Positions 2,590 through 49,383 of a stretch of 64,000 bases of DNA are shown here, in pieces; position 1 is the first letter of the stretch, and each line of letters starts with the position of its first letter. The position numbers were made by a program, and so were the translations under genes. The stretch covers positions 19,894-83,893 of the forward strand of contig URHR01000001.1 of NCBI GenBank assembly GCA_900547725.1, in the 5' to 3' direction. The DNA is from an uncultured Eubacteriales bacterium. GTDB lineage: Bacteria; Bacillota; Clostridia; Oscillospirales; CAG-272. The notes under the pieces were generated by a model. That model was not told where the DNA came from. It did not search any database and saw only the letters and a program-made list of their open reading frames with translations.

Positions 2590-3510
2590 TTAAGAGTTGA
2601 TTTTGAACCGCAGAACCGTTGGGCAGTGGTCGCTGACCGACAGCAACCGCTCCTCGGCAACAATGCGGTATTCTTCCGCCCGAACGCGGGCGGTGGGATC
2701 GAAAAGGAACGCATGGTCAATTGCATAGGGGTAATGGAGCGCGGGCATTTCGTCTCTCTCCTGCTTCTCCCCTTTTCCCGAGGACGGGTGACAGGATGCG
2801 CGGTTGTCGCGCTCCGCCGCAAGGTCGTGCGTATCGCGAAACCCCAGTTCCGTCAGCCGTTTCGCGCCGCCTGCCGCAATGCCGGAATTGAAATCTCCGC
2901 AGAGCAGAACCGGGCAGGCATACGTTTCTGACAGGGCTGTCAGCTTTGCATGGATGAACTCCGCCTCTTCGGGCTGACACCACGTGCGCAGGCTGAGATG
3001 CGTGTTCGCAACCAACAGTCTGCCGCCATAGCCGCAGGGACTTCCGTTCAGCAGAACCCATGAGAGACTGCGAAACCGCGAACCGGGCTTTGCCGCCTCC
3101 GGGGCTTCCTCGGGGTATGCGTAGCGCGGGGATTCGTTGCAGGCATGGGCGGGATAGGTTTCGCGGCAGTCGTTTTTGGTGTCCACCACCGAAAAACCGT
3201 TTGCCGTGAAGTCCCACCTTCCCGCCGCTTCCTCCCGCCATCGGTCGGGGCGGTACAGAATCGGATTCCAACTCCCGCCCGGCAGCTCGCCGCTCCCCTT
3301 TGCCTCGGTATACGCTTTCCCGAGCGCGGGCAGAAACGCGGTGTCATGCCGATAGTAGTAGTCGAACTCCTGCAGGCAGATGAGATCGGGCGCGCGATCC
3401 GCGAGCCACGCGGCGGCGCGGAGTGCACGTTCCGCAGCGGTCCGATAGACCGCCGTTCCCGGCATCCACGCGTTGAGCAGATTCCAGGATACGCAAAGGG
3501 ATTCGGTCAT
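2590..3510 (-). CDS. Endonuclease/exonuclease/phosphatase (EEP) family protein, no signal peptide
   Basis: EEP motifs are present: SWNLLNAW, LICLQEFD, LCGDFNS, SDHCPTVLRF. The start is chosen at MTESL because its ATG overlaps the stop of the upstream micro-ORF (ATGA). Confidence 0.85.
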   Translation of the reverse strand: MTESLCVSWNLLNAWMPGTAVYRTAAERALRAAAWLADRAPDLICLQEFDYYYRHDTAFLPALGKAYTEAKGSGELPGGSWNPILYRPDRWREEAAGRWDFTANGFSVVDTKNDCRETYPAHACNESPRYAYPEEAPEAAKPGSRFRSLSWVLLNGSPCGYGGRLLVANTHLSLRTWCQPEEAEFIHAKLTALSETYACPVLLCGDFNSGIAAGGAKRLTELGFRDTHDLAAERDNRASCHPSSGKGEKQERDEMPALHYPYAIDHAFLFDPTARVRAEEYRIVAEERLLSVSDHCPTVLRFKINS

Positions 3511-3635
3511 CCGAGTTTCCATGCCGCCTCGCAGTCAAGCGCGTCGCCCTGCGAAAGCGTCAGCGATCCGGTCAGAATATCCTGCGCGGACAGCTCGACG
3601 GATGCCATCATGGGGGTTGTGTACAGCTTTTTCAT
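3507..3635 (-). CDS. Micro-ORF P1 (42 aa), member of the QDILT peptide family
   Basis: Sequence is MKKLYTTPMMASVELSAQDILTGSLTLSQGDALDCEAAWKLG. RBS AAAGGAGAGG lies 5 nt upstream. The stop overlaps the next ATG. Two paralogs sit at 31639..31758 and 41722..41874. Confidence 0.6.
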   Translation of the reverse strand: MKKLYTTPMMASVELSAQDILTGSLTLSQGDALDCEAAWKLG

Positions 3636-3667
3636 AACTACCTCTCCTTTCTTATTTTTCGGGTTCA

Positions 3668-5419
3668 TCAGGTTTTGGTAAATGCAAGTACGGTCGGGCA
3701 ATGGTCGCTCGCGCTCAGAAGGTTCCCGTCGGTCAGAACCAGATACACCTGCGGACGGATTCCTCCGAGCGTGAGAATATGGTCAATGGCATCGCTCTCA
3801 TAGCGCCCGCCCGGCGCTTTTCCGAGCTCGTGCCAAGTTCCCGAATCGTTGCGGACTTTCGCGGTATCGTAGGTGTCCGCAAACCCCTTTGCGCGCAGTT
3901 GCTCCAGAACGCCTTCCGATTGCGTGCGGCGGGAGTTATAATCCCCGCAGAGCAGGGTCACACAGCCCTCGTAGCGCGCGGCAACGCCCCGCATGGTATC
4001 CGAGACCACCGTTGCCTCCGCAGGATGCGTTCCGAGCGGCAGACTGGCATGGAAATTGCCGACCAGATACAGGCTTCCGTCCGAGCGGTCGCGCAGAACC
4101 GCCCAGATCAGCTTGCGGAAGCGGGAAACGCCGTCCGCCGCGCCCGGGTAGGTGGTAGATTCCACCGCGCCTGCGGCTTCCACCAGATCCAGCCATCCCG
4201 ATTCCGCCACCGTGTAACGGTCCTTGCGATAGAGAATCGGATTCCAGATGTTGTTCTGCTCTACGCCGTCCACCGTAACCTCGGCGTAAAGCGCCTTCGT
4301 CTGATCCAGAAGCCCGCGGGGCGCTTTGCGGTAGCTGACGTCGAATTCCTGCAGGCAGATGAAGTCCGGCAGGTAGGAAAGCAGCATCGCCGCCACAGTA
4401 TCGTCGCGCGTTCCGGGCGTTGCGTTGTTCTGCCAGACATTCAACACGTTCAGCGTGATGATAATCCGGTCGCCGCTCCTCTCGGAGACCGTGACAAGAC
4501 CGTCCATCTCCAGTTTTTCGCCGCCCGTGACGTTGGCAAACCGATTTTCGAGATAGAGCCGCAGAAGCGTTTCGGACAGCCCGTCGCCGTATTCCAGACG
4601 GTATTCCGTCCCGCTCCGCGCAATCCGGTAACCGTTCAGTCCCTCGGTCTTGCGGATGACAATGCGGTTCTGCGCCCCGTCGGCAGTGCCGTCGGGTTTC
4701 GCCCGCATCAACATCTCTCCCGAGGTGCTCCGCACGGTTTCAATCAGCTGTGCGGCAAGGTTCGCTTCGGTCTCGGTGCAGTCTACCTGATAGTCCGAGA
4801 CAGGCGCGCCGCCAACGGTCAGCGAACCGATCTGGTAGCTTGCATCATGCGACAGCTTCAGCGCGCTCCGCTTCAGGCAGAGGTTTCCGTCCCGCATCAC
4901 GAGCGCGTCGGTCATCTGCCCGGAGGCAATCCACAGCGCGGAATAGGTATAGGCGGCAAGCGTGATACAGCCCGCGTCGCCCGTTACCCTGAAATCGTTG
5001 TAGCGAAGCCCGCGGAACGAATCCCCCGCATAGCCCGCGACGTTTCCGACCGCAATGACCCCGCCGATGTCGTCGGGAATTCTGCGGTCGCTCCAGACCT
5101 GAAATTCCACGCCGCTCTTCTCTTCCCAATCCGCCGCGAGCGTGCGCGCAATCTTTGCGTAGTCCGCAGAGGAAACGCCGTCGGGCAGATTGGTTTGCTG
5201 ATAAACGAAGGCATAGAGCGCCTTGCCGTCGGCGGTCAGTTCCAGCCGGTCGGCGGAATCGTCCGCAGACGCCGGGGCGGTTTCCGTGTTGCCCGGGGCT
5301 TTGGTCAAAGCTTCCGTCCCGCGCGGCTTCGTTCCGGTCGGCGTACCCGATCCGCCCGGGTTACATCCGACCAGAAGAAACGCAAAAACCAGCAAAAACA
5401 GAAATGTTCTTTTCATCAT
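3668..5419 (-). CDS. Lipoprotein with an N-terminal alpha/beta module and a C-terminal EEP-fold hydrolase domain
   Basis: Lipobox MMKRTFLFLLVFAFLLVGC. EEP motifs are TLNVLNVW, FICLQEFD, LCGDYNS, SDHCPTVLAF. Confidence 0.85.
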   Translation of the reverse strand: MMKRTFLFLLVFAFLLVGCNPGGSGTPTGTKPRGTEALTKAPGNTETAPASADDSADRLELTADGKALYAFVYQQTNLPDGVSSADYAKIARTLAADWEEKSGVEFQVWSDRRIPDDIGGVIAVGNVAGYAGDSFRGLRYNDFRVTGDAGCITLAAYTYSALWIASGQMTDALVMRDGNLCLKRSALKLSHDASYQIGSLTVGGAPVSDYQVDCTETEANLAAQLIETVRSTSGEMLMRAKPDGTADGAQNRIVIRKTEGLNGYRIARSGTEYRLEYGDGLSETLLRLYLENRFANVTGGEKLEMDGLVTVSERSGDRIIITLNVLNVWQNNATPGTRDDTVAAMLLSYLPDFICLQEFDVSYRKAPRGLLDQTKALYAEVTVDGVEQNNIWNPILYRKDRYTVAESGWLDLVEAAGAVESTTYPGAADGVSRFRKLIWAVLRDRSDGSLYLVGNFHASLPLGTHPAEATVVSDTMRGVAARYEGCVTLLCGDYNSRRTQSEGVLEQLRAKGFADTYDTAKVRNDSGTWHELGKAPGGRYESDAIDHILTLGGIRPQVYLVLTDGNLLSASDHCPTVLAFTKT

Positions 5420-5440: not shown

Positions 5441-6931
5441 TTAATAACCGAAGCGCGAGTTGATGTTGTCAATCACTCTCTGCATATTCTCAGCTTTTCC
5501 GTTCAGCGCCGAGTACCAGTCGTCGGACGTGTTGTTGTAAAGCCGCTTGCGGAAGAGCGCGACGGGAGAATCCTCCCAGTCGAATTCGTTGGCAAAAATC
5601 CGCCCCATGTCATAGGTCTTGGAAGAGACGATCAGGTCGAACATCTTTGCGTTGATCGGGTCGTCCTGTCCGCGATACTTCAGAAGATCGTAAACCTTCG
5701 GCTGAACCGTGCGGTAGCCGCCCGAGGCAAGCGCCTCCATGACATACGCCGCGCGCTCGGTATTCTCGCAGTAGGTCGTCATCGACCACATGGTGTACGG
5801 GAAGCCCGAGGTGGAGTAGTACTCCTTCTGTTCGGTGTCCGCCTTCGGGAACGGAAGATAGCCGTAGCGGTCGTTCATCTTCTCGCGGTTCTTCATCAGA
5901 ACCAGAAAACTCGTCCCCGCCAGAACCGCACGCCCTTCGGTGAAGATATCAAAGCTGTAGGAGGTCGGATAGTAGTAATCGTCGCTCTTGAAGCAGGCGA
6001 TCAGGTCGCGCGAAAGATCGTAGATCGCACTTCCGCGGAATTCGGGCGCGATAATCAGCTTGCCTTCGTCATCGGTAGAGAGATACTTCAGACCGTTCGA
6101 CGCCAGAAACGCGTCGCCCACAACGGAATCCATTCCGATGTAACCGAAGGTATCGCCCGGATCTTTGCCCGAGACCTCGCTGTTCGTGTCCAGATAGGCG
6201 TTCCGAGAGATCTTATAGAACTCCTCCATGGTCCACAGCCCCTCCTGCGCCAGTTCGCGCGGGTCGGTCAGCGTGTCGTCCGCGTCGATCTTCGCCATAT
6301 TGACGCTCATGACAAAGGTCTGCAGAATGCCCGCCGCAGAGATGGAACCCGAGGCAAAATAAAGCTTATCGTTGATGGTCGCGCCCTTCAGAAGCGACGC
6401 CGACCACCAAGGCTTGGAGAAATCGAGAATGTTCCCGTATTCGTTCAGGTCGCGCAGGAAGCCGTCCGCCGAGAAGTTCGCCGCGCACTGGCTGTAGCAG
6501 GCGATCAGATCCACGGTCGTTCCCGACCGCAGTGCGTTCTCCACATTGGTAACATACTCGGTTCTGTCCGCGTTTCCGCCGTTGTAGTTCAGGTTGAACT
6601 CCAGAACCACCTTCAGGCGCTCCTGAACCAGCTCGTTGCGCGAAAAGGTCTGCTCGGCAATCTCGTCCCCCTTCGCGTAGTCCGTGTTGAAATCGTAGGA
6701 AGCTTCGCTGTTGCTCCACCCCATTACGCGCACGGTCTCGTTTCCGTAGTTCAGCCCTGCGGGAATCGAATCCCGGATGTACCCGTTTTCGTCATACGGA
6801 TTTTCGGTTGTCCCGGCGTCGGTTGTCGGTCCGTCGGTTTTTCCCGGATTCGGCGGTGCGGTCTTGCTGCCACACCCGAACAGGATTGCGGCAACCAGAA
6901 TCAGACAAAGAAGCAATGCAATTTTTTTCAT
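5441..6931 (-). CDS. Large lipoprotein solute-binding protein (ABC family-1 / LplA-like)
   Basis: ATG at 6931 with a GGGAGG RBS; the track start at 6937 is TTG. Lipobox MKKIALLLCLILVAAILFGC. Blocks FSRNELVQERL, YSQCAANF and FSKPWW are shared with the SBPs at 33974, 41910 and 54117. Confidence 0.85.
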   Translation of the reverse strand: MKKIALLLCLILVAAILFGCGSKTAPPNPGKTDGPTTDAGTTENPYDENGYIRDSIPAGLNYGNETVRVMGWSNSEASYDFNTDYAKGDEIAEQTFSRNELVQERLKVVLEFNLNYNGGNADRTEYVTNVENALRSGTTVDLIACYSQCAANFSADGFLRDLNEYGNILDFSKPWWSASLLKGATINDKLYFASGSISAAGILQTFVMSVNMAKIDADDTLTDPRELAQEGLWTMEEFYKISRNAYLDTNSEVSGKDPGDTFGYIGMDSVVGDAFLASNGLKYLSTDDEGKLIIAPEFRGSAIYDLSRDLIACFKSDDYYYPTSYSFDIFTEGRAVLAGTSFLVLMKNREKMNDRYGYLPFPKADTEQKEYYSTSGFPYTMWSMTTYCENTERAAYVMEALASGGYRTVQPKVYDLLKYRGQDDPINAKMFDLIVSSKTYDMGRIFANEFDWEDSPVALFRKRLYNNTSDDWYSALNGKAENMQRVIDNINSRFGY

Positions 6932-6962
6932 AAGCAACCTCCCGTTTAAGTATTACAGCCTC

Positions 6963-28471: not shown

Positions 28472-29683
28472 TTATAAATTACAATTGGATATCGTTACAT
28501 CGGCAAACAGCGGGAAATGGTCTGAAGCGGAAAGAGTACACTCATCTACTGCTACTCCAAACACAGATACCTCTGCGTGACCTTTGGCTAAAAAAATACG
28601 GTCAAACGATTGAATGGCATCTGTATCTGTCTCTGCACCTCCATCCGGCTGCATCAGTCCCAACTCTGTCCGGAATTTTGGATAGGGATGATAAGATTTG
28701 GTCTGAGCTGCGTATACAGTGGCCAGATCTTTCACATACACACATCCGACAGTTTCCGTCAGATACTTGTAGGATTTACTGGTTTTAATAAAGTTGAAGT
28801 CCCCCATCAGGAAAACCGGTACATCCGGCTCATCACAGTGCAAAGTATGAATTAACTCCTCAATTTCCTGCACCTGTCCAAGCCCCACCACAACGTTTCC
28901 CCCTTCCAACTGGGTATTCAACACGATGTATCGGCACCCTGTCTTTTTATCTTTGAGCTTCGCCCATGTCAACAGCCTGGTCTCGCCGTTTTCCTGCTGA
29001 TTCCGAAAGATCACAACCTTGGAATCGATCAATTCAGTTGTAGCGATATGATAAAGAATGGGAGACACATTCCGCCGACGATAAGTACCGTTCACCTTGG
29101 GATCGGTACTCTCCCGATATCCCAATTTTTCCAACAAAGTAATGATATTCTGATCACCGGCATATATCCGATTGTTGTCAGCACATTCCTGCAACCCCAG
29201 TACATCGGGACGATACGCTTGAACCACATTCGCTTGCAGAATATTCCGCTCGCAGACGTTTGGATGCCCCCAAAGAACATTATACGACATTAACCGCACG
29301 TTTCCGCAATGACGATAAGCATAACCCGAGGATGTCCCAAAATCATTCAGCAGATCGCTGTAATGACCACAGTAATCATCTCCGTCTTTCCAAACATTTC
29401 CCTGTCTGGTTTTCCGGCAGTATTCTTCAACTGCACCGTCTAAACCAAGGTAATCGGCGGCAGACAAACAAATAACATCTCCGTCTGACACGATCCGAAA
29501 CGAGCCGGGCGTGTAGCTCCGGTTAAAAGCCAATACAATACGCCGTTTTGCACACGCCTTTCGCAGAGTTTGCTCCCTCTCGAGCAATGTTGCCAATTTT
29601 ATGGCTTCGCGCTTCAAAAGATAATCGTTTTCACCGTATGAAACTTTAATCTGTTCAGCTTCGAGTTCCAATGTATATATCAT
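28472..29683 (-). CDS. EEP-family protein without a signal peptide (tandem paralog of the next gene)
   Basis: RLMSYNVLWGHP, VLGLQECADNNR, LMGDFNF, SASDHFPLFADV. Long stretches are near-identical to 29701..31509. Confidence 0.85.
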   Translation of the reverse strand: MIYTLELEAEQIKVSYGENDYLLKREAIKLATLLEREQTLRKACAKRRIVLAFNRSYTPGSFRIVSDGDVICLSAADYLGLDGAVEEYCRKTRQGNVWKDGDDYCGHYSDLLNDFGTSSGYAYRHCGNVRLMSYNVLWGHPNVCERNILQANVVQAYRPDVLGLQECADNNRIYAGDQNIITLLEKLGYRESTDPKVNGTYRRRNVSPILYHIATTELIDSKVVIFRNQQENGETRLLTWAKLKDKKTGCRYIVLNTQLEGGNVVVGLGQVQEIEELIHTLHCDEPDVPVFLMGDFNFIKTSKSYKYLTETVGCVYVKDLATVYAAQTKSYHPYPKFRTELGLMQPDGGAETDTDAIQSFDRIFLAKGHAEVSVFGVAVDECTLSASDHFPLFADVTISNCNL

Positions 29684-29700
29684 TTTTATTACCTGACTTT

Positions 29701-31509
29701 CTACCGATTGGCAAATACAAAATCAATAAAGATGGGGAAATGATCCGAAGCAGAGAGCGTACACTCATCGGCTATACAACCGTACACACGCACATCTGCC
29801 TCTCCTGTCGCTAAAAAGATATTGTCAAAGCTAAGTTGCCCTTGGTTATCATAACCGATGCCTCCAGCCGGCAACATCATACCATGGACCCGATCAAATC
29901 TCGGATAATCATGTGTCGATTTTGTAGTGGATACAAAATCGGTCGCAAGATCTCTTGTATGCCGGTATCCCGCTGTATTGACAATATAAGAATAGGTAGC
30001 GCTGGAGTGATTGAAGTTAAAATCTCCAATTAAGAATACCGGAACTCCCGAATACCTCTGCGATAGACTTTGAATCAGCGCCTCAATCTCCTGAACCTGT
30101 CCCAGCCCGACGACAGCATTTCCGCCTTCGAGATGAGTATTGACCACGATATAGTTTTTACCGTTGGCTTTATTCCGCAATACAGCCCAACTCAAAACCC
30201 GTGTTTCGCCTTTTGGTAATTGTTGATTCTCATAAATGTGATAATCGCTTTCCAGTACCTCTGTGGTGGCAGTGTGATAGAGGATGGGGCAAACATTATA
30301 TTTCCGGTATACCTCAGGCATCTCAGGATTCATGCTCTCCCGATATCCCAATGCTTCCAAAAGTGTGATAATGTTATTTTCGTTTGTAAGACGATTGTTA
30401 AAATCACATTCCTGCAATCCCAATACATCCGGCATATACTGCTTAATCATCTCACTCTGTAACCGGTTTCGCGCTGCAATATCCGGATGCCCCCAAAGTA
30501 CATTGTAGGACATTATGCGCACGTCACCTGCCGGCAAATAGGCATACTTGGTGGATTGAGTAAGTTTTGTAAGATGATCCTTATAATTGCCTTTAACGGA
30601 AAATCCATCTCGGAACGGGTAATAACCGTTTGGTGCCGCAGTTTCGAGGTATCGAAAAATCCCTTCAAATCCATAATAAGTGGAAGCAGCAAGCGTAATG
30701 CTTTTTTCAGACACTGTAATCTCAAAATCTCCCTGCGGCAATGCTTCGCTTTCCTCAATCACAATTTGTATCCCATCACCTGTCGGTGCGGAAGTGGTAG
30801 TTACCAAAGACTTTCCCGAAAGTGTCTTGATCGCCTCGCTTACACGATACGCATATCGAGCTGGCATCTGCGCCGCGCTATCATACACCACGCAGTAATC
30901 CGAAGCCGGATAATCAAAAAATGGGAACAAAGAAAATTGGATTCTCTGTACGGCCAAATAATTACGTGGTATCAACAATTCCGCCAATACCGGTGTTGTC
31001 GGCAGTTCTCCTTCCGGCTCTGCACCAAATACATCCTGCACAAACTGCGAAATTGCCAAATATAAACCGCTTTGTGTTTCGGAGTTAAAAAGCAATTTGT
31101 CCCCTACAACTGAAACGGAATATCCTTGTGCGTAGTCTACATCGCTTTTCTCTGTCTGTTCCGGACGATTCGTTATCCCCAACAAAATCTCCTTTTCGGC
31201 TCTCTCACCGCCACCCATATCCGAGGTTTCGGAATCCTTCCTCACCTGCAATTTGGCACCGGTATATGCTTCTACCGTTCCGGCCAACCGTTCTGCCATT
31301 GCCCGCACATATGTTTTGGGGTGCTCCGGAATCACAATTACATAGTCAGTTTTGTGATTTTTAACTACCTGCAAATTTTCTGTTTTCATCGGTCCTGTTG
31401 TGTCTGACAGACCGCCGGAATTTTGCGCATTTTTTCCATTACAACCAAACAGTAAAGCAATCACAAGTAATATCCCCCATGATGCAAACCTTTTTGATCG
31501 ACATTTCAT
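29701..31509 (-). CDS. Lipoprotein with an N-terminal alpha/beta module and an EEP-fold hydrolase domain
   Basis: Lipobox GILLVIALLFGC. N-module motif EILLGITNRPEQ. EEP motifs RIMSYNVLWGHP, VLGLQECDFNNR, LIGDFNF, SASDHFPIFIDF. Confidence 0.85.
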   Translation of the reverse strand: MKCRSKRFASWGILLVIALLFGCNGKNAQNSGGLSDTTGPMKTENLQVVKNHKTDYVIVIPEHPKTYVRAMAERLAGTVEAYTGAKLQVRKDSETSDMGGGERAEKEILLGITNRPEQTEKSDVDYAQGYSVSVVGDKLLFNSETQSGLYLAISQFVQDVFGAEPEGELPTTPVLAELLIPRNYLAVQRIQFSLFPFFDYPASDYCVVYDSAAQMPARYAYRVSEAIKTLSGKSLVTTTSAPTGDGIQIVIEESEALPQGDFEITVSEKSITLAASTYYGFEGIFRYLETAAPNGYYPFRDGFSVKGNYKDHLTKLTQSTKYAYLPAGDVRIMSYNVLWGHPDIAARNRLQSEMIKQYMPDVLGLQECDFNNRLTNENNIITLLEALGYRESMNPEMPEVYRKYNVCPILYHTATTEVLESDYHIYENQQLPKGETRVLSWAVLRNKANGKNYIVVNTHLEGGNAVVGLGQVQEIEALIQSLSQRYSGVPVFLIGDFNFNHSSATYSYIVNTAGYRHTRDLATDFVSTTKSTHDYPRFDRVHGMMLPAGGIGYDNQGQLSFDNIFLATGEADVRVYGCIADECTLSASDHFPIFIDFVFANR

Positions 31510-31638
31510 ATTCTAAACCTCTATCACAAAATCAAAATTCCAATTATAGGGTATCCCGAACAATTGTTATTCGGAATACCCCTTTTTGTATCAATCTATT
31601 GAACCAACATCATCGGCAGGCTATTCTTTAGCCGCACT

Positions 31639-31758
31639 TTAAGGATTGCCCCATTCCTTTTTATCTTCGCCATAAGGCTGGGAAATGGATACAGATTCGG
31701 TCAAAATATCTTGCGGCAGAGGCATAAAAAGCGCCTCGGGTCTTTGATAACTTTTCAC
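31639..31758 (-). CDS. Micro-ORF P3 (39 aa, GTG start), member of the QDILT peptide family
   Basis: Not in the ORF track. My translation is (M)KSYQRPEALFMPLPQDILTESVSISQPYGEDKKEWGNP. RBS AAGGAGGAA lies 8 nt upstream and abuts the TAA stop of the GLUG gene. Confidence 0.55.
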   Translation of the reverse strand: MKSYQRPEALFMPLPQDILTESVSISQPYGEDKKEWGNP

Positions 31759-31771
31759 AGAATGTTCCTCC

Positions 31772-33499
31772 TTATTCCTTGTATGCGTCTGCAAACGCCT
31801 TTATTTTGGCAAGCGAACTATTACTGTAAGGACTGTAATTTCCTTCTTTTTCCACATAGTAGGGATAGTCCTCAGATTGTGCATCTGCGCGATCGGCATA
31901 AGCTTCCCGTGCAACAGATGCAATGGTACGGGAGTGATCCTGTTCGATATAATCCGAATAAAAAGTAACGGATAAATCTCCAACAGTAATCGTCAGGTAT
32001 CCGACCGCACTGTATGCCAAGTTGTAGTTGGACTCAAACAGGTTAGCTACCGCACCGGAAAAGGTGTATGCAGTGTCGGTCTCCTCTAAAAATTTATAAA
32101 CGGTTGTGTCGAACGGTACGTTAATGTAAGGATCAAAAGCAAACCCTTGCTCTTTCTTGTATGTATCCAAGGCATCAGCGGTGAAAGTACCAACAGCCTT
32201 TACATATTTGGTTGGCGCGATGAGGGTGCCGATTTGCACGGTAACGTTGTCTGCTTTAAGCAGCGCATCTAACGTAGATTTTTTGATTTCAGTATCAAAA
32301 CGCAGACCTGTGGGATCGTCCAGCCGTACAGAAGCACCGGTCAGAGTTTTGAGAGTAATGTCGGTTACACAACCGGATGCACTCAAATTCCCCTTCCCCT
32401 TGTTTCCGGCCAAATTATGACCGCTAGCATAGCAGTTTTTCAGGTTTAACTGCTTCGCCTCATTCATACCAACCAGTTCACCCATAAAACCGGGGTCGGT
32501 TCCTTTACCGGACAGCATCTTGCCGGCATTAAAGCAATTCTCTATATTATAAACTGCCTTACTTCTGGCATCGCCAATGATACCGCCGGTGCGGCCATGT
32601 CCACGATTGGTCTCCACAAAGATATCCCCATAGTTCACACAGTTGCTGATAGATACCGTTGTATCTGTAGCCGCATCACCAACGGCTACGATACCACCAG
32701 AATACGCGATGGTAGCAGATCCGGTAAAGATTTGCGAAATATCTGCATAATTTGTGCAATTGGTTATCTGGGCTGCCTCGATTCTGGCCGCAATTCCGGC
32801 TGTATATTGCCGCTCTTTATTGGTGCCAGAAGTCGTTACCTGAAGTTGAATCTTTCCGTGTGCCGTACAATCCTGAATTTTACCTCCGGCGGCCAACATG
32901 CCGGTAATTCCGCCAAAGTAAAAATCAACTGATTTTGCTTCACGGGTAATTTGCACATCAGCATACACGGTGCAATTTTCAACAGCAGAACCGCCATAAA
33001 CAGATGCGCACAGTAAGCCGCTATAATTATTCTTTCTTGATCCGGCGCGTATATGACCGTGCACTGTGAGATTCTTTACTACAGCACCTCCATCCAACCT
33101 ACCAAAGAGTCCCGGTCTGTAATCCCGTTCCTCATTGATTGCAAAACCGGTTATGACTTTACCGTTTCCGTCAAATTTCCCCTTAAACGCTTTTCCTGCA
33201 TCATTCTGATTACCGATCCCTGTCCATTCCCGACCGCCAAGATCAATATCCGCAGTCAGAATATAATATTGATTATACGTAGCACTTCCATTTGAATTTA
33301 CAAGAGAGGCCAAATAAGCCAATTCTGAACCGTTTGAAATCTTCCACGGGTCATCATCAGTACCGGATCCACCGGAAAAAGATGCAGCAACGCTACCATC
33401 CCACGCAGCAGTGTCTGCTGCGATCGCCGGAAATTCCAGTAAAAAAGTCGAGAGCAACATGGCAAAAATGATGAAACATGATAAAACTTTGGTCTTCAT
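31772..33499 (-). CDS. Secreted GLUG-motif / beta-helix repeat protein
   Basis: Signal peptide MKTKVLSCFIIFAMLLSTFLLEFPAIA. N-terminal region DPWKISNGSELAYLA..ADIDLGG..FDGNGKVI..GLFG. Repeated GGI(T/V/I)G blocks. RBS GAGGAGG. Confidence 0.8.
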   Translation of the reverse strand: MKTKVLSCFIIFAMLLSTFLLEFPAIAADTAAWDGSVAASFSGGSGTDDDPWKISNGSELAYLASLVNSNGSATYNQYYILTADIDLGGREWTGIGNQNDAGKAFKGKFDGNGKVITGFAINEERDYRPGLFGRLDGGAVVKNLTVHGHIRAGSRKNNYSGLLCASVYGGSAVENCTVYADVQITREAKSVDFYFGGITGMLAAGGKIQDCTAHGKIQLQVTTSGTNKERQYTAGIAARIEAAQITNCTNYADISQIFTGSATIAYSGGIVAVGDAATDTTVSISNCVNYGDIFVETNRGHGRTGGIIGDARSKAVYNIENCFNAGKMLSGKGTDPGFMGELVGMNEAKQLNLKNCYASGHNLAGNKGKGNLSASGCVTDITLKTLTGASVRLDDPTGLRFDTEIKKSTLDALLKADNVTVQIGTLIAPTKYVKAVGTFTADALDTYKKEQGFAFDPYINVPFDTTVYKFLEETDTAYTFSGAVANLFESNYNLAYSAVGYLTITVGDLSVTFYSDYIEQDHSRTIASVAREAYADRADAQSEDYPYYVEKEGNYSPYSNSSLAKIKAFADAYKE

Positions 33500-33617: not shown

Positions 33618-33830
33618 TCAATACCGTTTACTCCACTCCCGGTTATCGGTAACATCCGGCTTAACCGGTTCATCTGAGTCGGCAAATTCGGTTGACTCCG
33701 GAAATTCAGCATTGGTTCCGGATGTCTTGTCAACCGCCTGTTGCATAGGCTTTTCACAGGCGCATAAGGAAGTGAGCAGCAGTGTCAGGCAAAGCAAGAA
33801 AATCATCCATACTTTATTCGTTCTATTCAT
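33618..33830 (-). CDS. Small acidic lipoprotein (70 aa)
   Basis: Lipobox LLLTSLCAC. RBS AGAGGAA 6 nt upstream. It lies between the SBP and GLUG genes. Confidence 0.55.
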   Translation of the reverse strand: MNRTNKVWMIFLLCLTLLLTSLCACEKPMQQAVDKTSGTNAEFPESTEFADSDEPVKPDVTDNREWSKRY

Positions 33831-33973: not shown

Positions 33974-35506
33974 TTATCTGGCTTCTTCCGAAGCCTTCCA
34001 CAATTCTTGGAAAGTCTGGTTCAGTTTAATTACTTCCTCAACGATCAAATCCCGTTTGCCCTTCAGAAGTGAACTGATCGTATTGGTACCGGAAGCATAC
34101 ATATCTCTCAGCTGTGTCGTACCGAACGCCTTAAAAGCAGTTCCAATATAGATATTAGCAGGATCAAAGAAGGTTGATGATTCCATAATCTCCAACATTC
34201 GTACGGATTCGGGATCCTTGGCATATCGCGTGGTCAGAGCTCTTTCGTAGTAAGCCGATTTTACAGTTTGATAACTCTCAGAAGCATAAGCCTCCAAGAA
34301 CTGGCTGGATTCCACCCGTTTGGCTCCCCCCACCGTGCGCGGGATAGCATACAGCAAGCATTGATCCTGAATATAGGAATAGTATTCATCCTGTGTCTCG
34401 GAATCAGATTTTGGCAGCGGTAAAATGCCATAGCCCTGTTTGGTTTCACCCAGATTCTTCATACCCGTTTCCTCCAGGAAGAAAAGCCGGAAGCTGGTCA
34501 AAGCTGCGGTACCTGCTGTAAATTTTCCGACCACATCAAAATAGGTAGAGCTGGTATATGATCCATCGCCATACATCATTCCCAAAATCTTATCTATTGC
34601 ATTAGAAAAATTGGCGGTAGAACTCAAATCATTGACATAAAGATTCTCCCCATCCTTTCCAACCACACGCAGACCGGCAGAGGCCATATAGCCATCCGTG
34701 AGGGAAGACCCCGATCCTACCCACATCACATAACCGAATTGATCATCAACATTCACGCCATTACCATCGAGATCGTTGTAAAAATTCGCTGACAGTTCAG
34801 CCACCTCATGAAAATCCCAATCTCCGTTCAGAACCGTTTGATAGGGATATTCCACACCAACATCGGTAAACAAATTTTTATTAAAAAACATTCCTATCAT
34901 GTACCGATAATAAGACAGCGAGAACTGACCGGTAAGAAGATACTGTGCATTTCCCACAGAGAGCGCATCATTGTAACCTTGAGAATAGTAATCCTTCTCT
35001 GTGTTGATAAAAGGCAAATCCAACAGATTGGCAAAATGCCCCAGCTGAGCCATCCCACACATACGATATCCGGCGGTAGTCATAATATTATAGGTATCAA
35101 AACCGCCATTGATCAGATTGGTAATTTCGTCAGTAATAAAATTGCTGTTTGTATCACCGACCCGTTCGTACACTTCAATTCTACAATTCAACCGATCTTC
35201 CAAATTAAGATTTCGTTTGAACATAGCATCTTGTACTACATTTACCTCAGACTCCTCCTGCAGCATTTCCCGCACCGTTTCACTCTGCACGTAGGAAAAA
35301 AGTCGGATAGTATGTTGCTCAAAATCCAAGTCATCCGGAAGATCGTCTACATCGTTGCGAATTTCTTCTGTTTGATCTTCTCCCCCAGTTGTCGTGGCAG
35401 TTTCTGTACTCTTCGGTTTTTCGGTCTTTGTTCCGCACGAAGCCAACGGAACAAGAAGCAGTAGAATGGCACAAAAAAGCGCCAATCTTTTTTTCAATAC
35501 GTCCAT
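33974..35506 (-). CDS. Large lipoprotein solute-binding protein (LplA-like)
   Basis: ATG at 35506; the track start is TTG. Lipobox LLLLVPLASC. Block MFKRNLNLEDRL is shared with the other large SBPs. Confidence 0.85.
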   Translation of the reverse strand: MDVLKKRLALFCAILLLLVPLASCGTKTEKPKSTETATTTGGEDQTEEIRNDVDDLPDDLDFEQHTIRLFSYVQSETVREMLQEESEVNVVQDAMFKRNLNLEDRLNCRIEVYERVGDTNSNFITDEITNLINGGFDTYNIMTTAGYRMCGMAQLGHFANLLDLPFINTEKDYYSQGYNDALSVGNAQYLLTGQFSLSYYRYMIGMFFNKNLFTDVGVEYPYQTVLNGDWDFHEVAELSANFYNDLDGNGVNVDDQFGYVMWVGSGSSLTDGYMASAGLRVVGKDGENLYVNDLSSTANFSNAIDKILGMMYGDGSYTSSTYFDVVGKFTAGTAALTSFRLFFLEETGMKNLGETKQGYGILPLPKSDSETQDEYYSYIQDQCLLYAIPRTVGGAKRVESSQFLEAYASESYQTVKSAYYERALTTRYAKDPESVRMLEIMESSTFFDPANIYIGTAFKAFGTTQLRDMYASGTNTISSLLKGKRDLIVEEVIKLNQTFQELWKASEEAR

Positions 35507-35549
35507 TTCCAATTAACTCCTCTCTTTCTTCCGATTTATCGGTACTTAT

Positions 35550-41721: not shown

Positions 41722-41874
41722 ATGATGAAAACAAAAGCGTATTTTGCACCCGCTATGTCGGTTGTTGCGTTTGATTTTGAAGCACAGGATATTCTGACTC
41801 TGAGCCAAGGCTCTATGAAACAAGAACTGACGATGTCTTTCGATGAGCTGTTGAACAGCGGCAGCAACAACTGA
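41722..41874 (+). CDS. Micro-ORF P2 (50 aa), member of the QDILT peptide family
   Basis: Sequence is MMKTKAYFAPAMSVVAFDFEAQDILTLSQGSMKQELTMSFDELLNSGSNN. RBS GGAGGA lies 6 nt upstream. It starts 17 nt after the GLUG stop and ends 35 nt before the SBP gene. Confidence 0.6.
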   Translation: MMKTKAYFAPAMSVVAFDFEAQDILTLSQGSMKQELTMSFDELLNSGSNN

Positions 41875-41909: not shown

Positions 41910-43454
41910 ATGAAACTGATTTGCAAATGGCTGTCACTCTGCCTGTTTGCGGCAATGCTGCTGACAACGTTTGCGTCCTGCGCCAAGCCGAAGCCCGAAA
42001 ATCCGGGCTCCGGCACCGCAACAAACGGAACGCAAAGCGAACAGACGCGCGAGGAAGTGACCACCAAAGTCTCCGCTCTCGAACAGAGCGGCTTGGAAAA
42101 GAAAAACTTCGGCGGCAGAAAAATGAAGATCTGGCACGGCTCCGGCACAGTCTGGTCGCCTTATCCGATGGAAGTTACCCTTGACGAGGCGCTGACCGAC
42201 ATCATTTATGACGGCGCCTACAAGCGGAACACGGGGTTGGAACGCGACCTGAACATCGCGCTTCAGTTCGTGGACTCGGGAACCGACCCGAACACGGTAG
42301 GCGACAACACCAACACCGACAAAAAAGCGCTTGATATGCTTTGGAAAAGCGGCGACTCCGCCTCGTATGACATGATTCTTGCGGGCGGCTTTGCAAGCGC
42401 TACGCTGGCTACGGAAGGCTTCTTCCTTGACCTGGACAACTGCAAGGATGTCAAGCCCGACGCGGACTACTACGAATCGCGCGTGAACCGTCAGGTCCGC
42501 CTGATGGATCACCAGTACTTCGCAAGCGGTTTCTACTCCGTAACGGGAACAAGCGGCATTGAGGTCATTTATGTCAACACCGACATCATCAACAGCGTGA
42601 ACACCGATCCCGACAATCCCGTTTCCACGGAAATCCTTTACGAAAAGGCGCTGAACAAGACCTGGACCGTTGATTATATGCTGGAGCTGGGAAGCCGCTA
42701 TGCTCTCCCCTCCTCCAACACCGGGCACTATGAAAGCGACCAGTACGGCACCATCTTCTCCTATCACAGTATGCACAGCGTCTACCACGGCCTCGGCGGA
42801 ACGGACATCGTCTGGAACGACGCAAGCAACCGCTACAATGTTGTGCTCTCCAACCAGTCGAACCAGAAGATCTTTGAGTACATCAGAGAGAATATCACCA
42901 AAAAGAACGGCGGTGAAGTTCTGCTCTCCAAGCGGTCTCCCGGCGCGGGCGTTGAAGAATTCCTTGCAAAATCGGCTCCGTTCTTCTGGGGCGGTCTGAA
43001 CAACATCAAGGAAGTCATCGCCGACGGAATGCACTGGACCATGCTCCCTCCCCCGCTCTTCAAGGAAGGGAACGACTACAACTCCTTCACCTCCGCATGG
43101 TGTCTGAACTTTGCGGGAATCCCCTCCAATGTCACGGACTCCGAGACTTCTTCCTATCTCTATGAGATGTTCATGTGCTACTCCTACGATTACCTCTATC
43201 CCGCTTACTACGAAACCTGCTTCCAGCTGACCTATCAGCCCGACTCGACCTCGGTTCGGATTTTCAATCTGATCGCGCGTTCCAGATATGTGTCTATGGT
43301 AAACCTTTACTCTCTGAACAACTCCGGCGTGGAGATCAAAGACATTTGCAGAGACACAAACCTTGAGCTTGGTTCCTCGCTGAAGCGTGCAAGCGAAGTG
43401 ATTGCGGCAAATCTCACCAAGCTGGTTGAGAACTTCTCCAAGAAAGAGCAGTGA
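41910..43454 (+). CDS. Large lipoprotein solute-binding protein (LplA-like)
   Basis: Lipobox AAMLLTTFASC. Block AYKRNTGLERDL is shared with the other large SBPs. Confidence 0.85.
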   Translation: MKLICKWLSLCLFAAMLLTTFASCAKPKPENPGSGTATNGTQSEQTREEVTTKVSALEQSGLEKKNFGGRKMKIWHGSGTVWSPYPMEVTLDEALTDIIYDGAYKRNTGLERDLNIALQFVDSGTDPNTVGDNTNTDKKALDMLWKSGDSASYDMILAGGFASATLATEGFFLDLDNCKDVKPDADYYESRVNRQVRLMDHQYFASGFYSVTGTSGIEVIYVNTDIINSVNTDPDNPVSTEILYEKALNKTWTVDYMLELGSRYALPSSNTGHYESDQYGTIFSYHSMHSVYHGLGGTDIVWNDASNRYNVVLSNQSNQKIFEYIRENITKKNGGEVLLSKRSPGAGVEEFLAKSAPFFWGGLNNIKEVIADGMHWTMLPPPLFKEGNDYNSFTSAWCLNFAGIPSNVTDSETSSYLYEMFMCYSYDYLYPAYYETCFQLTYQPDSTSVRIFNLIARSRYVSMVNLYSLNNSGVEIKDICRDTNLELGSSLKRASEVIAANLTKLVENFSKKEQ

Positions 43455-47739: not shown

Positions 47740-49383
47740 TTACCCGGCAAAATCATAGGTTATCAGAATCGGACAATGATCCGACGGCGCCTCACCGTCA
47801 ATCAGGCTGTCATCCACCGTATAGCGGGTGACAAGAAAATCCTCGCCGGTGAGGAAGAAATAGTCGATCACCGAGGTCCGGAAGGTCGGCTTCCGGTCAG
47901 CCTCCAGCGCCACATCGGACGCAGTCACGAAGCCGGATTCCATCAGATGCCGGACGGACGGCTCGGAGGCAATTTCGTTGAAATCCCCGCTGATGACCGT
48001 CGGAACACCGGCATATTTCTCAAGGAACGCGGTCAGCGCCTGCACCTGCGCCAGACGGACTGCCGGATCCTTGGCGTGGTCGGTGTGCGTGTTGACGCAC
48101 AGAAACCGCTTCCCATCCGTCCGGCGCCGCAGGATCGCATAGGTGAATATCCGGTTGCAGATGGACCCGTCCACGCGCGAAACGGTGTCCGGCGTCCCGG
48201 TCAGCCACCGGGTTCCGCTTTCCTCCACCTCAAAAAGCGCACGCCGGTAAAAGATTGCGCTGTGCTCCCCGCTTCCGCCGGCGTCCCGTCCGACACCGAC
48301 CGAGGCGTATTCCGTCCCCAGACCGTCGCGCAGTGCCGCCATCCACTCCTCGCTTGCCTCCTGTACGCCGAGCGTATCGGGCAGATGCTTCCGGATCATG
48401 GTCAGCACCCGTCCCACGCGCGCTTCGGTCATGTTGTGGACCAGCAGATTAAAGCTCATGGACCGGATGGAGGTATCCTCGCAGGAAACCGCTCCGTCCC
48501 GCACGTCCAATGCCGCATTTCCCTCCGCCGTCCTCAGTGCCTCCAGCAGACGGTTCACCGCACGGTAAAGCTGCGGGATATCGCTCCCGTACAGAAGCAC
48601 ATCCCCTCCCGCTGCGCCGGCATAAAAGCAGGGCGATGCAGGCAGGTTCTCCGGAAGGACACCGACAGAGCCGATCCGAATGCACGGTCCGGCAGGCTGA
48701 GCTGCCCCTGCGGCGGCGGTCGGCAGAAGATAACCGGTCCGCTCACGGATCACATTCCCCAAGCGCTCTGCCAGCGTCCGGCAGGCGGGACGGTTCTCAT
48801 AGATCAGCGTGTAGGCTCCGAGATCGGTTCCGTTCAGCGAAACCTCCGACACTGCGTAATCTCCCTTCACAAAACGCTCCGCTTCCGGCAGGAAGAAGGA
48901 CTCCGCCCCCGCCGGCGGAAGCAACCCGGAAAACGCACGCACCGCCGCCAGTACGCTTTCATGCGACAGCCCTGCCAGCACCACTTTTTTGCCGCACAGC
49001 CGGATGATGTAGTCCCGGTCGCGGTGCAACTCCGCGCAGACCGCCCGGCTCTCCGGTCGGTTGGTGGCGCCGACCAGAATTTCGTACTCCCCTACCGCGT
49101 GTGCCGAATCGTTTTCCCGGACAAAATCATTCCGGACAGGAAGGGTCGCACCGAATCGCTCCCGCAGGGTATTCCGCAGGGTCTGTAACTCCCGGTACAG
49201 TGCCTCGTTCAGCTCTTCCTCGGCATAAACGATCGAATACGATGCCAGCGCAGTGACCGGCAGGGACCGATCCGCCGCAGAGCCGGTCGTATCGGCATTC
49301 TCTGCCGGTTTGCCTGTTCCGCAGCCGGCAAGCAATACCGCCGCCAGCAGGAACAGAGAAATCCGTTTCCATGTTCTTTTCAT
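47740..49383 (-). CDS. Lipoprotein with two N-terminal alpha/beta modules and an EEP-fold hydrolase domain
   Basis: Lipobox LLAAVLLAGC. N-module motif EILVGATNRPES. EEP motifs MSFNLLVHN, TLGVQEASEEW, ISGDFNE, PSDHCPILITY. Confidence 0.85.
   Translation of the reverse strand: MKRTWKRISLFLLAAVLLAGCGTGKPAENADTTGSAADRSLPVTALASYSIVYAEEELNEALYRELQTLRNTLRERFGATLPVRNDFVRENDSAHAVGEYEILVGATNRPESRAVCAELHRDRDYIIRLCGKKVVLAGLSHESVLAAVRAFSGLLPPAGAESFFLPEAERFVKGDYAVSEVSLNGTDLGAYTLIYENRPACRTLAERLGNVIRERTGYLLPTAAAGAAQPAGPCIRIGSVGVLPENLPASPCFYAGAAGGDVLLYGSDIPQLYRAVNRLLEALRTAEGNAALDVRDGAVSCEDTSIRSMSFNLLVHNMTEARVGRVLTMIRKHLPDTLGVQEASEEWMAALRDGLGTEYASVGVGRDAGGSGEHSAIFYRRALFEVEESGTRWLTGTPDTVSRVDGSICNRIFTYAILRRRTDGKRFLCVNTHTDHAKDPAVRLAQVQALTAFLEKYAGVPTVISGDFNEIASEPSVRHLMESGFVTASDVALEADRKPTFRTSVIDYFFLTGEDFLVTRYTVDDSLIDGEAPSDHCPILITYDFAG

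Follow-up and report, generated by a model that had tools for sequence, protein, structure and literature searches.

The stretch of DNA analyzed here (the window, 64,000 nt in length) comes from an uncultured gut bacterium of the Clostridia (source genome G000; 2.2 Mb in 170 contigs, 93.6% complete) and carries, between two genes for large proteins, a 39-codon open reading frame (ORF) with a GTG start that is the subject of this report. Coordinates are window positions unless a contig or locus is named. The micro-gene lies on the minus strand at 31639..31758, with its GTG at 31758-31756 and 39 codons followed by a TAA stop at 31641-31639; its product reads VKSYQRPEALFMPLPQDILTESVSISQPYGEDKKEWGNP and, written with initiator Met, (M)KSYQRPEALFMPLPQDILTESVSISQPYGEDKKEWGNP. 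A Shine-Dalgarno (SD) sequence, GGAGGAA (31765..31771, minus strand), is separated from the GTG by the 6-nt spacer CATTCT and directly follows the stop codon (TAA, 31774-31772) of the upstream gene (31772..33499, minus strand), such that the micro-gene starts 13 nt past this stop. The upstream gene encodes a 575-aa secreted GLUG-motif beta-helix protein (Pfam Glug, E 1.7e-6; signal peptide by inspection), while the downstream gene (29701..31509, minus strand) encodes a 602-aa lipoprotein with an endonuclease/exonuclease/phosphatase (EEP) domain (Pfam PF03372, E 1.6e-9). The interval between these two genes is 262 nt (31510-31771), not 260 bp as stated in a first-pass annotation of the window, which also described the ORF as a GTG plus 39 sense codons; it has 39 codons in all, i.e., the GTG plus 38. 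The arrangement of the GLUG stop codon, the SD, and the GTG suggests translational coupling of the micro-gene to the GLUG gene.

The 39-codon ORF is a genuine gene, as the first-pass annotation had proposed from the TAA-GGAGGAA-6 nt-GTG reading of the minus strand. That annotation had called the ORF hidden, a description that does not hold for public data; the ORF is short, but its exact product has already been annotated on 106 public contigs (NCBI, ENA, Logan, JGI), with the JGI copy spelled with V as its first residue, and the public 90% identity cluster of this product contains 22 members, every one 39 aa long (the 15 sequences listed are all full-length). Neither the 28-aa product of an internal ATG nor a 51-aa product of a TTG start has a record in the public protein collections searched. 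When a profile was built from 17 paralogues with the target omitted, the GTG product scored 22.3 bits (E = 2.3e-4 against 52,981 six-frame genome segments) and the internal-ATG product 7.9 bits (E 7). The segment between the GTG and the internal ATG thus adds approximately 14 bits and places K, Y, and P in the register of the family, indicating that the K-x-Y-x-x-P segment, which is present only with the GTG start, is family-like. In addition, a strong and suitably spaced SD precedes the GTG but none precedes the internal ATG, and in a search of 1.84 billion proteins the match started at residue 1 in nearly all short called proteins among the best 150 listed. Use of GTG is not confined to this copy, as a second GTG-start family member was found in a sister species (L118:3355-3585, minus strand, contig C8 of genome G016), where AGGAGG is followed after 8 nt by GTG AAA CCA TAT and the product reads (M)KPYVTPEMQMSFWETQDILTTSTYAEDLDQAWGADQNWTIIGSIH. 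On its two sides, this second member has a 410-aa ORF and the gene whose product is most similar (39% identity) to the GLUG protein upstream of the target.

Comparison of the window with 10 strain-variant loci (n=11), which were retrieved via four variant proteins, provided a further test of the gene and of its start. In all 11 loci, TAAGGAGGAACATTCTGTG is identical, the SD and the GTG are unchanged, and the frame is intact, which agrees with the conservation that the first-pass annotation had asked to see at related loci. The first 12 codons are invariant among strains, and the 11 variable sites are distributed unevenly, with one falling within the first 45 nt and the other 10 within the 72 nt that follow (p = 0.049); nine of the changes are nonsynonymous and two are synonymous, at residues 16, 21, 23, 24, 26, 33, and 34. 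A DNA search for the locus in 60 relatives gave no match and a search of the GLUG protein against proteins of the genus gave only paralogue-level matches (38-39%); because the target has no cross-species orthologue in these searches, the comparative test was feasible among strains only. In four of the strain variants (L002 and L005-L007) an in-frame TAA closes the GLUG gene early, 6 nt (two codons) before the window stop (GCATAAATGGAATAAGGAGG; window 31772-31790). The SD and GTG are unchanged despite the moved stop, and exact abutment of stop and SD is therefore not essential. The possibility that the ORF is a chance reading frame in a non-coding spacer, or that the internal ATG is the true start and yields a 28-aa product, draws on the very short length of the ORF and on the finding that the flanking spacer is as conserved as the micro-gene at strain-level divergence; given the leave-one-out scores, the SD before the GTG and none before the ATG, the choice of the GTG by public gene callers every time, and a placement identical to that of 20 paralogues, we consider this possibility highly improbable.

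These paralogues form a dispersed family with 21 copies in the genome, or perhaps 22 if one degenerate copy that lacks the Pro is included. Of the 21 starts, 20 are ATG and one, that of the target, is GTG, and an AGGAGG-like SD precedes the start in 21/21 copies. In the family consensus, MKKxYxxPxM-x8-DILTxS precedes a variable, net-acidic stretch of 17-26 residues in which a Trp or Phe often occurs toward the end. Counted from the Tyr to where the DILT box ends, the spacing is 18 residues in 18/21 copies; the target has 17 and the third window copy 20. In the target, the motif reads Y4-Q-R-P7-E-A-L and then D-I-L-T20-E-S22, where Ser22 is the family-invariant Ser; by analogy with LppA (see below), residues 1-20 (Y4-x-x-P7 ... 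D17-I-L-T20) would form a leader and residues 21-39 a core. The target matches the family profile from residue 1, has an SD-led start, and lies just after a large same-strand ORF.

Two further family members are located in the window. Paralogue P1, MKKLYTTPMMASVELSAQDILTGSLTLSQGDALDCEAAWKLG (3507..3635, minus strand), lies between two EEP genes, has an ATG start with the SD AAGGAGAGG, and has its exact product on 698 public contigs; the other, MMKTKAYFAPAMSVVAFDFEAQDILTLSQGSMKQELTMSFDELLNSGSNN (41722..41874, plus strand), starts 17 nt after a gene for a 705-aa secreted GLUG-like protein, with its exact product on 380 public contigs. The paralogy of target and P1 claimed in the first-pass annotation is borne out via the family profile. 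The full-length alignment that was also claimed stands at the level of this profile only, as pairwise BLASTP aligned 13 residues (PQDILTESVSISQ with AQDILTGSLTLSQ; 62% identity, E 9e-5) and the N-terminal K..Y..P likeness to P1 is visible only with the family profile. The degenerate copy, MMMKQYFLLVFDLIWAEETDVIRTSDLTEADNSDDIVRDIWSIDKL (L119:1334-1531, minus strand, contig C29), follows a GLUG paralogue and has kept a DVIRTS box, while the Pro of YxxP has been lost.

The family extends well beyond this genome. One to 26 copies were found in 28/37 species genomes of the genus, and with an E cut-off of 0.001 public data contain 1,351 clusters (50% identity), nearly all of them 32-60 aa long with the match starting at residue 1. 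Among 90 homologues for which the source was listed, none has been named, Pfam, NCBIfam, and PHROGs gave no match to the three window peptides, and a search of the PDB with the family profile returned chance matches only and did not retrieve an LppA leader chain (see below for LppA). No curated model of, or paper on, either the peptide family or the enzyme cassette described next was found in the libraries searched.

The genome contains one three-gene cassette (contig C2:54036-55491) that encodes an HprK-fold kinase, a discrete PqqD-type recognition element (RRE) for peptides made by ribosomes and modified after translation (RiPPs), and an S26-fold Ser/His peptidase. The RRE (C2:54737-55024) is a discrete protein of 95 aa (PqqD PF05402, E 1.2e-18) and is the single one in the genome by PF05402 search; its relatives in the PDB are TfuB1, TbiB1, LppB (9x8z), and PbaB1 (9x90). 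The kinase gene (C2:54036-54740), upstream of the RRE gene, encodes a 234-aa P-loop protein with the P-loop SGVGKST, and the product of the peptidase gene (C2:55021-55491), downstream of the RRE gene, is 156 aa long and weakly matches archaeal signal peptidase I (TIGR02228, E 2.5e-5, below its cut-off). As searches of PDB sequences with the peptidase and the kinase gave nothing useful, folds were assigned by structure prediction and Foldseek instead. The AlphaFold (AF2) model of the kinase (pLDDT 94.6) had HprK/P (1kkm, 1jb1) and PEP carboxykinase as best folds, with E about 2e-6, and the kinase sequence gave only weak matches to curated hidden Markov models (HMMs), to HprK_rel_A (TIGR04352) and ScmC. 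The peptidase model (pLDDT 90.8) had SpsB, SipA, LexA, and human Sec11 as best folds, and among 25 homologues of the peptidase there is no variation at Ser29 (in SMxP), His69, and Gly-Asp-Asn 83-85. The cassette genes are tightly packed, and the triad occurs in the same order in 24/24 genus loci examined. At least 590 relatives of the cassette were found in public genomes; among the best 80, the RRE is next to the kinase in 63 and the peptidase in 69.

Three types of evidence connect the peptides to this cassette, one of them being the fixed Tyr-to-box spacing (see the proposed pathway below). With regard to co-occurrence, which was computed uncorrected for shared ancestry, the kinase is present in 16/17 peptide-positive genomes at the order level versus 51/151 genomes overall (Fisher p = 6e-8), and at the genus level the numbers of genomes with both, peptide only, RRE only, and neither are 25/3/2/7 (p = 3.5e-4). 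With regard to genomic context, family-type precursor genes directly adjoin the cassette in five loci from other genomes (L016, L052, L059, L084, and L114). L016 has the order large ORF, peptide, small transmembrane protein, kinase, RRE, peptidase, PF14907 gene, and then cps genes; L052 has peptide, kinase, RRE, peptidase, a nucleotidyltransferase-like gene, and an ABC-2 permease; and in L114 the peptide is upstream of the kinase. L059:3758-11592, from a metagenome-assembled genome of Ca. Fimimorpha faecalis, has a gene for a 1173-aa secreted protein, a 38-aa precursor, kinase, RRE, an ABC-2 permease with ATPase, and a signal-peptidase-I-like peptidase, and so combines surface-protein coupling and cassette in a single locus. 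In L084:8001-13024 (Faecalibacterium gallinarum JCM 17207, NZ_BQKV01000027.1) the kinase, RRE, and peptidase genes come first and are succeeded by genes for two peptides that have the family leader and a Cys-rich core, with a radical-SAM enzyme encoded behind each. In G000, one minimal cassette appears to serve approximately 21 unlinked precursor genes.

A kinase, an RRE, and a peptidase of this kind form the core of the pathway for linear polyphosphorylated peptides (LPPs), which is encoded by lppA-K-B-S-D-N clusters of Bacilli (Popov et al., Nat Commun 2026, PMC13381572). In that system, the precursor carries the motif YxxPxVLxHQxIxFET|xxS, LppB binds YxxP, LppS (catalytic S29, H68, D93) cleaves after T-1, and LppK polyphosphorylates S3; the biological role of LPPs was left open (PMC13381572). 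In a comparison made motif to motif, the family described here resembles LPPs in the architecture of its precursor, a short peptide with an N-terminal K-x-Y-x-x-P motif of RRE-binding type, a Thr/Ser box at a fixed distance, and a variable tail, but with another Ser position and another Tyr-to-box spacing (see below). On the enzyme side, the discrete PqqD RRE of both systems precedes a soluble Ser/His enzyme that is similar to archaeal-type signal peptidases and has its nucleophile at residue 29, and an HprK-like kinase lies alongside the RRE and the peptidase. Both also feature a PF14907 nucleotidyltransferase in the genome and a link to polysaccharide loci; in G000 this gene, of LppN type (contig C24:1934-3130, minus strand; E 5.5e-43), sits within a glycosyltransferase/polymerase polysaccharide locus and is unlinked to the cassette.

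The systems also differ in several respects. While the RRE, peptidase, and kinase of LPP clusters are all present in G000, the cassette here is limited to K-B-S, with the PF14907 gene and any exporter outside it, and the 21 precursors are scattered, each behind the gene for a large, usually secreted, protein, whereas the LPP precursor is encoded in the cluster. Cores are 17-26 residues here versus 45 in LppA, and the host is a member of an uncultured gut lineage of the Clostridia rather than of the Bacilli.

The first-pass annotation put forward no function for the peptide. We propose, with a probability of roughly 70%, that the micro-gene is translated into a precursor peptide of 39 residues that belongs to a dispersed clostridial LPP-like pathway with a stand-alone cassette. 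In the proposed pathway, translation would initiate at the GTG, presumably coupled to the stop of the upstream gene for the secreted GLUG protein. The N-terminal K-x-Y-x-x-P would then dock into the single discrete PqqD-type RRE of the genome, which would present the D-I-L-T-x-S box, 17-18 residues past the Tyr, to the adjacent S26-fold Ser/His peptidase; a fixed distance between Tyr and box is what would be needed if an RRE is to offer the site of the cut to a partner peptidase. The peptidase would take off the leader, probably after Thr20, and the adjacent HprK-fold kinase would phosphorylate the invariant Ser22 just beyond the cut. Each of these steps, i.e., docking to the RRE, the cut after Thr20, and the modification of Ser22, is proposed by analogy with LPPs.

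A number of observations weigh against this proposal. The box and its geometry are not those of LPPs, with DILT-x-S, Ser at +2, and Tyr at -18 (17 in the target) here versus FET-xx-S, Ser at +3, and Tyr at -16 there; the RRE is about as distant from LppB as from RREs of lasso peptide systems; and the kinase and the peptidase match curated HMMs weakly. No dedicated exporter was found, as tblastn of the L059 ABC-2 permease against the genome gave nothing at E below 1e-5 (MsbA-type exporters were not searched for), and elsewhere an ABC-2 permease is present at only 3 of 80 cassette loci. The target and its 20 paralogues are located on other contigs than the cassette or far from it, the co-occurrence statistics may partly reflect shared ancestry, and the target itself, which is without an orthologue in other species of the genus by the DNA search of 60 relatives and the GLUG protein search, deviates from the family in its GTG start, its 17-residue spacing, and a Pro-rich linker.

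Atypical features of the target would also fit a decaying or inactive paralogue, i.e., a gene that descended from a precursor gene but is now a poor substrate or is poorly translated. The target has the sole GTG start among the 21 copies, a 17- instead of an 18-residue spacing, the lowest profile score among the window copies, no orthologue in sister species, and nine nonsynonymous as opposed to two synonymous strain changes. Against decay, the frame, SD, and GTG are intact in 11 strain loci, public variants are all 39 aa, the first 12 codons are invariant, hypervariability of the tail is typical of RiPP cores, and a second GTG-start member is present in G016; we judge this explanation to be distinctly improbable.

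Similarities between the RRE and lasso RREs raise the question of whether the target could instead be a lasso-peptide precursor, with a YxxP leader, a Thr near the cut, and a core cyclized by an Asn-synthetase-like enzyme. The leader does resemble lasso leaders of Bacillota, the best solved relatives of the RRE are the lasso RREs TfuB1 and TbiB1, and its best NCBIfam match is lasso_PqqD, below the cut-off of that model. By contrast, the genome has no match to the transglutaminase-like B2 peptidase of lasso systems (PF13471) and no credible cyclase (only two partial matches of 20-22 bits to Asn_synthase, PF00733). Lasso rings comprise 7-9 residues, and the first acidic residue of the target past the proposed cut, core residue 1 aside, is at core position 10 and hence outside this range. 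The system also differs from the paeninodin/pseudomycoidin-type lasso systems of Bacillota in that its leader peptidase is a serine S26-fold enzyme, with neither a lasso cyclase nor a B2 cysteine peptidase found in the genome. A lasso precursor is therefore barely credible here.

Dispersed precursors served by shared enzymes have a precedent in the prochlorosins, where many dispersed ProcA precursors are served by one ProcM, a lanthionine synthetase. The prochlorosin system and the one described here have in common one machinery and dozens of unlinked precursors with a conserved leader and hypervariable cores; the enzyme chemistry is unrelated, and prochlorosin genes are not each coupled to a gene for a surface protein. 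The L084 locus, which is from a cultured strain that could serve as an experimental model and represents a radical-SAM variant of the pathway, shares with G000 the kinase-RRE-peptidase triad and the type of leader (IYEKASAEVIRFSNSDVITTSG...). It differs in its Cys-rich cores and in that each precursor is accompanied by a radical-SAM enzyme (Radical_SAM domain matched), which we read from Cys motifs as probably of SPASM type; the target has no Cys and no radical-SAM neighbor.

Placement behind genes for large proteins is common to the family members in G000, with 21/21 copies starting 12-98 nt (20 within 32 nt) past the stop of a same-strand ORF of 330-873 aa. Most of the upstream proteins have a signal peptide or lipobox (by inspection). 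In Pfam, the 21 proteins are mostly orphans, with two matches to GLUG and one each to Beta_helix, EEP, Metallophos, and Lactamase_B, while GLUG-like GGxxG repeats are present in 11/21. Two C-terminal domain signatures outside Pfam recur among these proteins, GA[SA][IV]R..P.G[IL]RF in 5/21 (e.g., the protein encoded at window 31772-33499, residues ~387-400) and x-V-R-F-x-A, approximately 110 residues from the C-terminus, in 6/21.

This layout could alternatively mean that the peptide is a small protein that serves the upstream surface protein, as a partner in export, folding, or anchoring or as a coupled stoichiometric reporter, and is unrelated to the cassette, with the leader-like motif acting as a protein-protein contact. 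Such a role would account for the placement of 21/21 copies behind large same-strand ORFs, for precursors that are unlinked to the cassette in G000, for the failure of the ABC-2 homologue search to find an exporter, and for the 35 kinase-positive genomes of the order without a detectable family peptide. The upstream proteins are, however, heterogeneous (GLUG-like, other beta-helix, EEP, metallophos, and metallo-beta-lactamase (MBL)-fold proteins), and one contact motif for all of them is therefore unlikely. The presence of the cassette in 16/17 peptide-positive genomes, the occurrence of family peptides inside canonical RiPP clusters elsewhere, and a fixed Tyr-to-box distance that suits RRE/peptidase geometry likewise speak against a role apart from the cassette, which we consider unlikely overall.

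The layout provides a concrete clue to peptide function, and the phosphoesterase genes nearby may provide another. Seven of the eight EEP (PF03372) genes in the genome have a family peptide gene no more than 3.5 kb away (binomial p = 6e-8, or 9e-6 when counted by locus); those near peptides are on contigs C1, C7, C18, and C19 and include window 2590-5419, 28472-31509, and 47740-49383. Genes for Metallophos and MBL-fold proteins are located directly upstream of some family members. An enrichment of surface phosphoesterases near the peptides may be meaningful if the peptides are phosphorylated, and we offer it as a lead only. Speculatively, each dispersed precursor could be functionally matched to the secreted protein encoded just upstream, with the matured phosphopeptide, perhaps nucleotidylated or glycosylated via the PF14907 enzyme, tethering or regulating this particular protein as its cognate ligand, primer, or anchor, and with the EEP, metallophos, and MBL phosphoesterases trimming or recycling phosphates. 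Although we regard this idea as doubtful, it would, if true, give LPP-type peptides a role in building the cell surface, as opposed to antibiosis or signaling.

The gene itself is a modest find, since public pipelines already call it, and the value of the observation lies in the nature of the family. Peptides laid out in this way will escape RiPP mining that relies on clusters, and we found no paper describing dispersed precursors that are each located behind a gene for a large, mostly secreted, protein. Both the peptide family and the cassette are common in gut and rumen Clostridia. For annotation, the lesson is that sub-50-codon, non-ATG genes of this peptide family are real and worth keeping.

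A role of the micro-gene as an attenuator or upstream ORF for the following gene was ruled out, as the distance to the downstream gene varies from -29 to +376 nt among family copies and the peptide sequence itself is conserved, not the ORF alone. Downstream of the target, the hairpin GGGGUAUUCCGAAUAA-CAA-UUGUUCGGGAUACCCU (31548..31582, minus strand; 16 bp) begins 56 nt past the micro-gene stop and has a U-rich run behind it; the surrounding 126 nt (31515-31640) fold with -37.2 kcal/mol (z = -3.8 versus shuffles), and a simple terminator scan did not call the hairpin. A promoter-like site, ATAACA-16-TATAAT (31543..31570, minus strand; 10/12 matches, a consensus match only), precedes the EEP lipoprotein gene and overlaps the hairpin. 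The hairpin is likely a leaky end of the GLUG plus micro-gene transcript; taken together with the overlapping promoter-like site, it suggests that the micro-gene most likely terminates the GLUG transcript and that the EEP gene may have its own promoter. An Rfam search of 31300-31900 gave no family match, and the spacer is thus not a known riboswitch or leader RNA.

Among other genes in the window, lipoproteins of approximately 500 aa are often encoded after the micro-genes (5441-6937, 33974-35512, and 41910-43454); no Pfam family matches them with an E cut-off of 0.001, and a label of solute-binding protein that had been considered for them was dropped for this reason. Finally, a 70-aa ORF with a lipobox-like N-terminus (MNRTNKVWMIFLLCLTLLLTSLCAC...) is located at 33618-33830 (minus strand), between the gene for a lipoprotein of approximately 512 aa and the GLUG gene, and is called as a 70-aa gene in strain-variant loci.

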